Positions 20,501 to 26,500 of a stretch of DNA of 64,000 nucleotides are shown one piece after another. The stretch covers positions 31,250,001-31,314,000 of the forward strand of contig NC_087245.1 of assembly GCF_037042905.1 (NCBI RefSeq), in the 5' to 3' direction. The DNA is from Lytechinus pictus. Taxonomy: Eukaryota. The notes beneath the pieces are model-generated. The model did no database searches and was not told the origin of the DNA. It was given only the letters and a program-made list of their open reading frames with translations. The number at the start of each line of letters is the position of its first letter. Position 1 is the first letter of the stretch. A program made the translations under genes and the position numbers.

Positions 20501-23500
20501 AATTATGGTGATGATGATAGTGATGATAATGATGATGGCAATGTTGTTGATGATGGTAATAGAAGTGATGTTACTCTGGTTGATGATGATGATGCAGATG
20601 GTGATGATTATGATGCTGATTCTGATGATTAATATGAAAAATGTTTTAAAATCTTTGAATTTTCTTTTCATGTTTTCTAGGAAACTTTGGATCACCATGG
20701 TTGTTCATCTCATTGTGCTGTCATGAGTGATGCGACTCAAGACCATCAGTTTGTTATTGGTAGAAATGATGTAAGTGATGCTCGCTCTCTCTTTTTATAT
20801 TCAAAATTTGATGTGTACTCTTAAATAATTTATGATTCAAGGTACCATAATATGGATTCAATGTTTTCCCCAGTTTATCCTTCTTTGAATGATTGAGAGA
20901 TTTTATTAAATTTTATTTAAATTTCAATTTGATTTAGACTCAAATAAACCATGAACATGAAAAAGTAAAGAGGTTGTGATGAGTGTTTAAAACATCATAT
21001 TCAAGATAATTGCTTTCATACTAATTTGGCTGAAAATATACAGATATTTTGTTGCTTTTATTTTCCTTGAAAATATCAAAAAACTAATAATTTTTGCATT
21101 GGATGTAGATTAAATTTGTACTAGCATTATCAATACTGAGCTATCCTCTGTATATATAAGCAAATGCACAACAAAGGTTTCACAAAGTAATTTTTTTCAT
21201 TTCTAAATTTTAAAGGCATAAAATCTGATATCTTTCATTTTTAGGCTGTGTACTTCTACCAGCCCGATGGGCGTGGCCCTTGCCTTGCCTTTGAGGGGCG
21301 TAAGACCATACTCCATTGGTTCAGGGGATATCTGGTGGTGGTAACGAAGGATAGTAAGACAATACCAAGACAAATCGCTGGGTGAGTCTTGAGAGATAGA
21401 TGGAAAGATGGATGAATGATTGATTGATTGAATGAATGAATGAATGAATGAATGAATGAATGAATGAATGAATGAATGAATGAATGAATGAATGAATGAA
21501 TGAATGAATGAATGAATGAATGAATGAATGAATGAATGAATGAATGAATGAATGAATGAATAAATTAATGAATGAATGAATGATGGATGGATGGATGGAT
21601 GAACGAATGAACAACTGAATGAATTATTACATAAATGAATGAATGAATGAATGGATGGATGGATAGACGGACGGACAGACAGATGGATTGATAGTTAGAT
21701 CAATAGAGATACAGTTCGTCAAAAAATAAGATTGATTGATCTCGTGAACTAGAATGATAGAGATATAACATTTACATGGAAATAAAAAATAGATAGATTA
21801 TTACATTATTTGGTTAGATAGGCTAAGAGATATTTTGAAATAAATGAAAGGAGGTAGAATGTTGAAAAGATGGATGGATGGAATGATTATTTGACAGATG
21901 AATGGTTAGAAGAAAGATAGATAGCTATAATGATTATAAGATAGAATGTTAGTTAAATGGATTTTCAAAGTGGATGGAAAAATCAATAAATAAATGGATG
22001 GTAAAATTGGATGGATTGATAGATGTTGGATAGATGAACAAATTCAAAATATAGATGGATTGTGAGATTAGGTGGATATGTAAATTAATAAATGTTTTTT
22101 GAATGAATAAATAGATATATTGTCGGCCTTATGCCAAAAGGGCCTTTACTGTTTTTTGTCATTCTGGGATAATCACGTTTAAAGTTTTGGCTTGTTTAAG
22201 AAGCAATTTTTTTATGATGATAACTTCGTTTTGGAGGTCAATTTCGATATATATATTGAGATATTACATTTTACATGATATTGTATTGTATTTTTTGAAA
22301 AATATTGAGAAATTTTCATGCTATGAGCAAAAAAATATGTTAAGGGCCTTTTGGCATATGCGTTGAGTGAAGCTTATTTATGCCAAAAGGGCTGTAACCG
22401 AAGCGTATTTACGATTGCGCCCTCTTTTGGCATGAGGCATTATTGGCACGCATCTTCATCAAAAAGGGCCCTTTAACAGTGTGCGCGCACATTAGTGTCT
22501 TTTTGGCATAAAGAAATATAAAGAAGGCGCAATGAATATAATTATGCCAAAAGGCCTGTTGTAATGCATTATGTATGGTAATACCATTGGGTACAATGTT
22601 ACCCTATTTAAGGCCCTTTTGGCAGACCAAAAAACGGGATACTCATTTAGGGCTTTATGGATTTCATAATCATAATGAATTTGGACAAATTAAGGACATC
22701 ATTTTAAAAAGCATGTCAAGATGATACACGATGATATAAATAACTCAAATCACCCAAAAAATGGGTTTAGGCCCTTTTGGCATGAGGCAGACGATATATT
22801 AATTGATTTTCACAGATGAATAGAGAAATCAATGGATAGATGCACTGTTTTAGACTTTATGATGATCAAATTGTTTATGGCAGCATTATCTATCCTGATC
22901 CATTTTGTTTCCTTCAGAGAGGGCCTTGCAAGGATGATGGACACAGTGACTGTCTATGACATCCAGAACAAATTCATAGGTAGGTGAACCTTTGAACAAA
23001 TTCTAAATGAAGTTATCCTGTAGTTGATGTAGTAGAGCCCATTTATACATATATATATATATATATATAATGGTGTCCTGCGTCATCTGTTGAGTTGGCC
23101 TCGCCTCATCTCATTATGTTTAATATTCACAACTCAACAGCGGTTGGTAGAAGTAAACTTCATCATCACACTATATATATATATATATATATATATATAT
23201 ATATACTTGTAAATAATTCAGCATCAACGCAAGACGTAGCTTCCATGTATCTCTTTATTACAAGCTTTCGGCCAATGGGGCCTTCATCAGGCCTATAATA
23301 CATTGAAACAAACAGAACAAACCATACAAATAAGGTCGAAATAACAAAGTAAATGTGTAACAAAGGGTACAGAACAGAAGGGTTACACTAAGATAACAAA
23401 AATAACAGAAATTAACAACAGAGGGGGTTGAGTACAGAACAGAAGGATTATAGTAAGATAACAAAAAATAACAACAGAGGGGGTAATGACTTGAACGAGA

Positions 23501-26500
23501 TGGTGGAATACAATAGAAACGATTGGGAAACTTAAGTGTGTGAAAGGACAAGGTATTTACCGGCATTGAAATTAACTTGGGATTCTGTTCATCAGGAGGA
23601 GTAGTGAGTCTTGTGTAGGTAATACTGTGAAAAAATGAGGATAATGTTTCAAGTAAAATGATAACTCGTTTCAATATTGTATCTTGTATTTGGGTACATA
23701 ACTATATTGATCCGTTTACATAGTATTCAAGTAACTGGTGATACAAGTTGTAGTTTGAGACATAAAAGGGTACATTGTCATGCGCGGGGAAATATATACG
23801 TGTAATTTATATTGATGTTTGAGCGGTAAGCAACATAATATTTTGTTTATTATTATTATCAAACATCAATATAAATTACACGTATATATTTCCCCGCGCA
23901 TGACAATGTACCCTTTTATGTCTCAAACTACAACTTGTATCACCAGTTACTTGAATACTATGTAAACGGATCAATATAGTTATGTACCCAAATACAAGAT
24001 ACAATATTGAAACGAGTTATCATTTTACTTGAAACATTATCCTCATTTTTTCACAGTATTACCTACACAAGACTCACTACTCCTCCTGATGAACAGAATC
24101 CCAAGTTAATTTCAATGCCGGTAAATACCTTGTCCTTTCACACACTTAAGTTTCCCAATCGTTTCTATTGTATTCCACCATCTCGTTCAAGTCATTACCC
24201 CCTCTGTTGTTATTTTTTGTTATCTTACTATAATCCTTCTGTTCTGTACTCAACCCCCTCTGTTGTTAATTTCTGTTATTTTTGTTATCTTAGTGTAACC
24301 CTTCTGTTCTGTACCCTTTGTTACACATTTACTTTGTTATTTCGACCTTATTTGTATGGTTTGTTCTGTTTGTTTCAATGCATTATAGGCCTGATGAAGG
24401 CCCCATTGGCCGAAAGCTTGTAATAAAGAGATACATGGAAGCTACGTCTTGCGTTGATGCTGAATTATTTACAAGTGTACATAGAACATGACGCGCTGTA
24501 ATACACGTTATGCAAAGGGCCCTCTTCTTTTATATATATATATATATATATATATATTCTTGGAGCAGTCATAAATTTTTTTTTAATCACTGTACCTCTG
24601 TAACACTCAAATAGAATTTTATCATATGGAGATCTTTGACTTTTTTCTCTCAAACAATGTAACTACTCAAAAGCTTCATTCAAAGTTGCAAGAAGAGCTA
24701 ATGTACAAATCTTGCAGTTACCTCTTGACCAAGTTCTACAGGGGCCAATTTGGTCCAGTAGACAATGTGCTATATGATGGGAAGAATAATTTTTTATGCA
24801 TGTGATTACTATTCTTTTAAATTCATACACATTATTTATTTGTCTTCAGCATATTCTGCACCCGTCCCGGAAGTACTGGACATCATCCAGGAGTGGGGCT
24901 CCCTCTATGTTCTCGGAGGAGACAGGAAAGTAAGTGTGTATCCAAGATATGATTAAATATGAGCAATCCGATCCAATACTTATTTAACGAAGCGCCTTAA
25001 TGTTCAGTTACAAAGCAGTGCACTCACACTACTCCATGTTTGGGTCACTAAAACAATAATTCAGTGCCTCAGAATGATTGTCTCTTTAGCAATTGACACT
25101 AGATTACCAAATTAGGATTTAGACTTTGACAACAGTCAACAGATTATAGATATATACTTGCCAACTGTCCCTATTTTGGGGAAAGAAAATCACCAATAAC
25201 GACTCTATGTCCTTACTTTTGTGAAAGTTTGTCCATATGGTTGTCTAGAAAATTTTGCAATGTCCCTTATTATGGACTTGCAAGATTCGCAGGGTTGCGG
25301 ATATCTATAAGATTCCATAATTTCAGTACATACTCGGACCATGGCTTTTAATAGATAAATCAAAGCTCTTTATTCATACTAATATGTAATAACATGTTTG
25401 TATCATGGATCTTGATTGTAGCTTAGCGTTGCTGTGGTTGCTCAAATTGTAATTTTCTTCTTCCTGTTACAGCTGTATCAACTCCAAGAGAAAGACACTC
25501 AAACTAAACTGGAGATGCTGTTTAAGAAGAACCTGTATGTCATGGCCATCAAGTAAGTACCGGTATTAGAATGACACTTTTTTGATTGCTTTTACAATGG
25601 TGAGATGGTGATGGAAGTGATGCAAAAGGTTGGGATAATGGTGGTTTGGGTTGTTGAGATTGTAGTGGTTATGGTGGTGTAAGTAGGAGGAGGTGGATGG
25701 TATTTAAATGAGATGACATTTGAAGATTCTCTGATCAAACTTTAAGTTTAAAGTTTGTTATATCAATTTGACGTTCACTTTGTTAAAGAACAACTGATAC
25801 CCCGATCGATTATTTTCAAGCATCCAAGCTTTATGTAAATAGTTCAAATGTAGCAAACATTACTTCTGCTGAGAATTTGTCACTGAGTTTATGCATGATT
25901 TAAACTTGTCATTGCCATTATAGCTACAAATAATACATTACATTTACTTGAATTTGCAGTCTTGCCAGGAGTCAGCATTATGACTATGATGGTTTGATTG
26001 ATATATTCACCCAATATGGAGATCATTTGTACAGCAAGGGGGACCATGATGGGGCCATAGCACAGTACAAGAAGACCATCGGTAGATTGGAACCTTCGTA
26101 CGTCATCAGAAAGGTAAGAGGGTTGATTGGGGTAATAGTGGTGGCTGGGAGGAAGAGGGAGGAGGGAGAGGGAATGGATGGAGGAAGAGGGGAATAAGGA
26201 AGTAGAGGGGAAGAGGAGGAGGAGGAGGAGAGGAAAGAGGAAATGAGGAGTTTCAGAAGGACTTTAATAGATTGGAACCTTTGTATGTTGTCAGGAAGGT
26301 ATGGAGACTGGTCAGGGTAGTAGTGATGGTTGGAAGGAATGTGTAGAAATGGGACGAAGAGGGGATGGGGAGAGGGAGGAGAAGGAAACGGTGGGAAGAA
26401 GAGAAGGAAACTTGAAAAACAATACATTCATTTTACAGAAATATGAATAAGCAAACAAGTTTACAAAAGCTTGACATGTACTATGATCTAATGCTAAAAC

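Follow-up and report, generated by a model that had tools for sequence, protein, structure and literature searches.

A palindrome occupying most of an intron of VPS11 was characterized in 64,000 nucleotides of Lytechinus pictus DNA (NCBI RefSeq assembly GCF_037042905.1, contig NC_087245.1, positions 31,250,001 to 31,314,000 of the forward strand). This stretch is referred to as the window, and all coordinates are positions within it. With a probability of roughly 0.84, the palindrome is the greater part of an insert, about 1,325 bp long and non-coding, that arose by one recent retrotransposition of a member of the Penelope-like element (PLE) family into a (TA)n microsatellite and for which no ribozyme activity is predicted. 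As reported in a preliminary description of the window, the inverted repeat is composed of two nearly perfect reverse-complement arms of 618 bp (23205-23822 and 23859-24476) separated by a 36-bp spacer (23823-23858), and comparison of the arms revealed a single mismatch at 23300/24381 (99.84% identity). This level of identity points to one young event. The right arm (plus strand) is the sense copy of the end of an element, non-coding and T-rich ahead of a hammerhead motif, while the left arm (minus strand) is an inverted, 5'-truncated and tail-less copy of the same end with its 3' end facing outward.

Structure of the insert and its host intron

The host intron (22980-24849, plus strand, 1,870 bp) has GT and AG boundaries and lies between a VPS11 exon of 62 bp (22918-22979, plus strand), recognized by its splice sites, in-frame join and a weak match to Pfam PF23341, and a VPS11 exon of 80 bp (24850-24929, plus strand), which has a match to Pfam PF23266 286-311 (E 0.0009). 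The two exons join in frame and fit successive positions of Pfam PF23341 (PEP5/VPS11 N-terminal), at 290-304 (E 0.066) and 306-332 (E 0.0037). These matches are weak because the exons are short; stronger VPS11 matches were detected for other exons in the window.

The two ends of the insert were found to be unequal. On the left, a (TA)17 tract (23172-23205), likely a piece of the target microsatellite, adjoins the tail-less end of the inverted arm. On the right, the base directly after the arm is G rather than TA, and the arm is followed by a one-sided 3' extension or 'tail' (24477-24530, plus strand), of which the part up to 24518 was seen in contigs of other copies and the final 12 bp or so are inferred. 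A (TA)13 tract (24531-24557) is reached only 54 bp beyond the right arm. Of the (TA)n tracts that the preliminary description placed outside both tails, only the left one abuts its arm, the gap on the right being element sequence. From these boundaries the insert appears to span about 23205-24530, between (TA)17 and (TA)13, and any target-site duplication would be hidden by the (TA)n on both flanks; no empty allele was seen. Within the right arm, an internal direct repeat (24197-24249 and 24253-24314) is 79% identical.

The spacer is composed of two parts. Its last 20 bp (23839-23858, plus strand) belong to the sense copy, as a 5' overhang past the inverted arm, and its first 16 bp (23823-23838) lie outside the sense copy and may be junction filler. 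No match above 14 bp to the 16-bp piece was found within the window. A small palindrome at the junction was considered and not upheld, as the spacer folded no better than its shuffles.

Arrangement of the insert also bears on whether two independent insertions of opposite orientation into one TA tract could have produced the palindrome. TA tracts attract repeated insertions, and a neighbouring piece between TA tracts, described below, may be one. However, no TA tract lies between the arms, the 5' ends of the two copies are at most 20 nt apart, and the arms are 99.84% identical while among other copies of the element divergence reaches 10% and the end points are many; two such events are thus very improbable.

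The neighbouring piece (23070-23171, 102 bp) lies between TA tracts at 23049-23069 and 23172-23205, has an 11-bp inverted repeat, is single in the window and folds no better than shuffles. It may be a further small insertion into this microsatellite.

Copies of the element in public sequencing runs

Contigs or reads of four of 20 listed public runs (X1, X5, X8 and X18) were aligned to 23800-24990, a region that covers the spacer, right arm and right flank and leaves the left junction outside. X8 carries another species label and is among the runs with a share of about 0.05. The numbers of records aligning to the sense copy in the four runs were 55, 7, 251 and 22, with some pieces 100% identical and others approximately 90%. 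The element family is multicopy. In both X1 and X5, the aligned contigs cover the region from 23839 up to the edge of the right TA tract and leave the flank bare, and so these two runs assemble the repeat and not the palindrome locus. The summed depth of X1, which is not a copy number, climbs from approximately 7 on the 5' side to 100-216 close to the 3' end, a profile that 5'-truncated copies would be expected to give. By this depth gradient and the loose ends of contigs, the copies are dispersed and variably 5'-truncated, although the data give no copy count.

The same records delimit the element at both ends. At the 5' side, the 20-bp overhang is present in record 1 (X1) and record 9 (X5), and upstream of 23839, where the palindrome copy diverges, the X1 and X5 contigs both run on with the same other sequence; thus, the parent element is longer than the palindrome copy. 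At the 3' side, the tail from 24477 to at least 24518 is common to other copies and is present at one end of the insert only. It is covered by contigs of X1, X5 and X8, including record 15 of X5, which spans 24367-24518 with 15 differences, and the contig alignment breaks off next to the right TA repeat. Run X1 was found to have both types of 3' end: one with the tail, and one that passes without it into (TA)n where the left arm ends (rows 24477 and 24483). The fold of the tail region was no better than that of shuffles, and a special stem-loop in it was not upheld.

In X8, the tail bin 24478-24519 is about 6-fold deeper than the preceding bin, and in six contigs the sequence ahead of the tail is a different one. 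Diverged subfamilies may share the tail as a cis signal.

Opposite-strand joints were also detected in the family. Of the five joints listed, three are of this kind, at 24142/24375 (X1), 23937/24367 and 24123/24200 (both X8), none of them at the point joined in the palindrome locus. The X1 joint, which has the same depth as record 5, can be read as head-to-head, and the X8 joints are not orientable.

These findings bear on two further explanations of the palindromic shape. One is an assembly artefact, in which a fold-back chimera doubled a single arm; it would account for the near-perfect identity of the arms and for the lack of a record that bridges the locus. By contrast, both flanks are unique with the VPS11 exons in order and frame, the arms differ by one base, the unequal ends (the one-sided tail and the 20-bp 5' overhang) each match other copies, and the family shows inverted joints at positions other than this one. 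In view of these features, an assembly error is regarded as improbable. The other explanation, insertion at TA of a miniature inverted-repeat transposable element (MITE) or foldback DNA transposon whose terminal inverted repeats are very long, might be suggested by the palindromic shape, the TA-rich site and the presence of other inverted-repeat elements in the window. A DNA transposon of this type does not fit the asymmetric ends with a tail on one side, the G in place of TA after the right arm, the many 5' truncation points and different joint centres of other copies, or the hammerhead and AATAAA at each outer end. This explanation is already largely refuted and is given hardly any weight.

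Likeness to insertions of Penelope-like elements

The palindrome locus has an inverted 5'-truncated copy joined head-to-head to a sense copy, and this arrangement was compared to that of described PLEs. PLE insertions are described as 5'-truncated with an adjacent inverted 5'-truncated copy and with hammerheads in the pseudo-long terminal repeat (pLTR); a tail of 30-40 bp is usually present at one end only, and a bias for (TA)n hides duplications (Craig et al., bioRxiv 2021.04.23.441226). Head-to-head is reported as the commonest inverted arrangement of PLEs, and self-priming is proposed (Arkhipova et al., PMC3846280). For a PLE of the anole, the tail is the interval between two reverse-transcription start sites, and cleavage prefers AT-rich DNA (Frangieh et al. 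2024, PMC11167929). Similarly to the endonuclease-positive (EN+) PLE units of the Penelope/Poseidon, Neptune and Nematis types as described, the insert has a head-to-head inverted 5'-truncated copy, a one-sided tail, a hammerhead near the 3' end and a probable (TA)n target without a readable duplication; unlike these units, it has no open reading frame (ORF) and no direct (tandem) pLTR. Poseidon of Anolis carolinensis (PAc, PMC11167929) likewise has two 3' ends that delimit a tail, an AT-rich target and a hammerhead upstream. In PAc, the ORF starts at stem II and the tail lies 111-118 nt into the ORF, whereas in the insert no open frame follows the motif and other copies lack the ATG at 24435. 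On sequence grounds the locus appears to behave as a PLE insertion, and a named clade is not assignable to it.

Based on this likeness, we infer the following order of steps. The endonuclease of the element would cut the TA tract, and reverse transcription would set out from the distal of two start sites, so that the tail is included, and would stop approximately 690 nt in, at 23839. A fold-back or template switch would then make the inverted copy, which would end at the proximal site and so be without a tail. Should the anole model apply here, each of the unequal 3' ends corresponds to one of the two sites at which reverse transcription of the family starts. The preliminary view of the locus as a young, coding-less PLE insertion is supported by the 99.84% identity of the arms, the lack of a coding remnant and the PLE anatomy within (TA)n. 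As it stands, the insert is a clean young case of an insertion pattern that has already been described, and by itself matters little. The site is probably a presence/absence marker, as judged from the 0.16% divergence of its arms. The insert would be of greater import if sense intronic PLE ends proved, across the genome, to persist chiefly alongside an inverted partner.

The hammerhead motif

Both arms were found to carry the motif CTGATGA-A-GGCC-CCATT-GGCC-GAAA-GC-T-T followed by GT and then AATAAA, starting at 24391 on the plus strand and 23290 on the minus strand, in agreement with the hammerhead core that had been noted in each arm. The AATAAA (24422-24427, plus strand), previously placed immediately after GCTT, actually begins two bases after the cleavage triplet; it is the sole sense copy in the intron. 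The right-arm motif (24389-24421, plus strand) is of the minimal type I hammerhead form and is sense in the VPS11 pre-mRNA, and the left-arm motif (23260-23292, minus strand) is antisense. In the right arm, the motif is composed of a 2-bp stem I (one pair being G.U), CUGAUGA at 24391-24397, a bulged A, a 4-bp stem II with a 5-nt loop, GAAA at 24412-24415, a palindromic GC and U16.1-U17. A minimal-hammerhead descriptor found only these two sites in the 64-kb window compared to one match in 60 simulated windows, a comparison in which the two sites count as one event and the descriptor was written with the motif already known.

The motif displays the traits of minimal hammerhead ribozymes (min-HHRs), namely the core boxes, the bulge after position 9, G10.1-C11.1, a palindromic 15.2-16.2 and an NUH triplet. 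Like the metazoan PLE min-HHRs presented by Cervera and De la Pena (2014, PMC4209133), it has CUGAUGA and GAAA boxes, a bulge after position 9, G10.1-C11.1, and AATAAA after a palindromic insert of 2 nt at helix III. All four of the traits listed in that paper that a single copy or its variants can reveal were present, including occurrence in a family with tolerated changes. Helix II is 4 bp in the insert compared to 7-8 in Schistosoma and 6 in D. virilis, while helix I, at 2 bp, is as in D. virilis; opposite-strand pairs of min-HHRs are described at 100-700 bp apart, whereas the motifs of the insert are 1.1 kb apart (PMC4209133).

Structure prediction does not favour an active form of this copy. 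When the right-arm motif was folded alone, stem II had a pairing probability of 0.97 and the two stem I pairs 0.0, the latter because a 9-bp register-shifted helix (24382-24390 with 24416-24424), which includes the cleavage triplet, occupies the cleavage-site region. In a cofold of two motif copies, the lowest-energy form was not a hammerhead dimer. Among the 40 of 89 variant rows of other copies listed, five lie inside 24389-24421: loop II and position 17 hold two each (U to C or A at the latter), and one changes the stem I G.U to G-C. None of the 40 is in the core or stem II. As judged by eye, the variants of other copies would weaken the decoy helix, and the relatives may be better ribozymes than the palindrome copy.

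Coding content and relation to an autonomous element

A reverse transcriptase (RT) related to telomerase with a C-terminal GIY-YIG domain in one ORF, the mark of an autonomous PLE, is missing from the palindrome copy. One candidate is an open frame of 147 codons (23980-24420), a length that 36 of 2,000 simulations reach and that is therefore borderline by chance; a frame of 34 codons matches no Pfam family. No match to PLE-type proteins at E<=0.01 was obtained when the window was searched by tblastn. Likenesses of the insert to the thumb and endonuclease ends of PLEs, seen by eye, were not significant and were dropped.

Scans for the family motif outside the window identified 0 loci by exact match in metagenome and viral contigs, and two loci, L001 and L002, by a relaxed scan of metagenome contigs. 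L001 has the same core layout approximately 490 nt behind a GIY-YIG ORF. A 1,016-aa protein ends in a sequence 98% identical to this ORF; RT-like motifs were read in the protein by eye, and a Pfam scan gave a weak GIY-YIG match only. L002, whose motif region is that of L001, is truncated by the end of its contig and is uninformative on linkage. By analogy, L001 shows that this motif layout marks PLE ends, not that the palindrome family has an ORF. Position 17 is U in both the insert and L001, and C or A in other copies of the family; because L001 also has it, U17 alone is no sign of decay.

The L001 contig has on its minus strand an unannotated PLE-type 3' end (684-1304 and 164-199) with a CxxC linker, GIY-YIG, hammerhead core and AATAAA. 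Its protein has 11 longer relatives of up to 1,034 aa with no informative names.

Against a PLE origin of the insert, and against its predicted fate, stand the following results. The 147-codon frame has no Pfam family and 0 matches among 1.84 billion proteins. A search of the insert with 11 PLE-type proteins and a C-terminal profile gave nothing significant (best tblastn E 0.03), and no RT or GIY-YIG sequence was tied to the element family in protein searches or in the short contigs. L001 has no DNA similarity to the palindrome element and a stem II of only 2 pairs, and so serves as an analogy only. Within 23800-24990, no aligned record bridges the palindrome centre or right junction. The covariance-model search that had been proposed as a check on the hammerhead did not recover it, as none of the 14 Rfam matches at E<=5 was to a hammerhead family, and two-sided covariation in stem II was absent from the variant rows listed (40 of 89). 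The tail is 42-54 bp compared to 30-40 bp for described PLEs. Finally, the hairpin, its editing and the lack of cleavage, which are discussed below, are predictions. With regard to the Rfam search, hammerhead models in that database expect a real helix III, and the Rfam matches on the hairpin centre were chance ones of microRNA type only, all below thresholds.

The link of the element family to an RT/GIY-YIG gene is drawn by analogy with L001. A parent of another kind was also weighed: the same insertion may derive from a non-autonomous, retrozyme-like or deleted PLE derivative that was never adjacent to an ORF and used PLE proteins in trans. The 530 nt upstream of the motif without a coding remnant fit such a parent; in L001 the 3' non-coding stretch is approximately 490 nt, so some coding end might be expected here. 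PLE ends have, moreover, been proposed as founders of non-autonomous families (Li et al. 2026, 10.64898/2026.07.22.740005). Animal non-LTR retrozymes of that report resemble the insert in being non-coding, in their type I hammerhead and in their relation to PLE ends. However, retrozymes are head-to-tail tandem units, whereas the insert consists of one inverted pair and no tandem unit was found at the locus, and the X1 and X5 contigs continue upstream of 23839, where an ORF of the longer parent may lie. A non-autonomous parent is thus possible but the less likely case, and the mechanism of insertion would be unchanged by it.

The predicted hairpin in VPS11 pre-mRNA

As VPS11 is on the plus strand, its pre-mRNA has one sense motif (right arm) and one antisense copy. 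The left arm would be transcribed first and then pair with the right arm into a hairpin of approximately 620 bp, to be removed with the intron. The arm hairpin is predicted to have 626 pairs (-1119 kcal/mol) and would cover the motif and the sole sense AATAAA of the intron.

The preliminary description proposed that this antisense copy masks the ribozyme, which would explain why the motif is tolerated. In its stronger form, the inverted arm masks a harmful sense hammerhead and poly(A) signal and the insert survives in a housekeeping gene for this reason. The predicted pairing, the order of transcription and the single sense AATAAA at 24422 would suit such protection. By contrast, masking is not needed to account for the data. 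With only one sense motif per transcript, there is no partner in cis for the dimer that such motifs apparently require. Single minimal hammerheads showed no detectable cleavage (PMC4209133; see also the review PMC6765202), and the anole PLE hammerhead cleaves only with its protein and is dispensable for insertion in vitro (PMC11167929). The register-shifted helix predicted for the right-arm motif would itself bury the cleavage site, leaving both stem I pairs at 0.0 probability in the best monomer fold. In addition, 42-44% of Xenopus retrozymes are intronic, though depleted per base (10.64898/2026.07.22.740005), and the VPS11 copy is too young to say anything on selection. Survival through masking is therefore unlikely, and the single sense hammerhead is predicted not to cleave with or without the hairpin.

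A general form of this idea, that the inverted copy of a PLE is a built-in silencer that hides its own poly(A) signal and hammerhead in a hairpin within host introns, is likewise doubtful. If it were true, head-to-head insertions would persist in genes that are cleared of solitary sense copies, and head-to-head PLE copies would seed ADAR and endo-siRNA substrates in housekeeping pre-mRNAs. No paper on the masking idea was found in a limited literature search, which does not show the idea to be unpublished.

The hairpin of approximately 620 bp would likely be an ADAR substrate, and Dicer may use it as well. Young repeats are the main targets of A-to-I editing in animals, with 86% of the sites of one sea urchin in repeats (PMC9989829), and intronic double-stranded structures are common, essential genes included (PMC6239182). 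For these reasons, by analogy, editing at the VPS11 hairpin is likely and would be unremarkable. Its near-perfect pairing in a housekeeping intron makes it a convenient place to look for hyper-editing. Raw RNA run X18 gave 22 reads, 21 of which fit only partly; among 27 changed places, A>G (3) and T>C (4) were not in excess. The A>G at 24065 is read as the letter of another copy, as it is also present in a contig of X5, a run guessed to be DNA.

The X18 reads match only the inner 66 bp of 24055-24120, run off loosely at either end of it (9 reads per side), and appear to come from an element fragment inside some other transcribed sequence.

Other repeats in the window

A 214-bp tandem repeat (28049-28840; 3.7 copies, 94% matches) has a unit that includes a VPS11-like coding stretch and is an apparent tandem duplication of an exon with its intron flank. 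MITE-like inverted-repeat elements were detected at 10165-10989, 6093-6694, 13338-13752 and 22106-22808, with arms of 234, 143, 65 and 52 bp, respectively. A 37-bp satellite forms two arrays, at 52899-53124 (6 copies) and 55472-56148 (18 copies).

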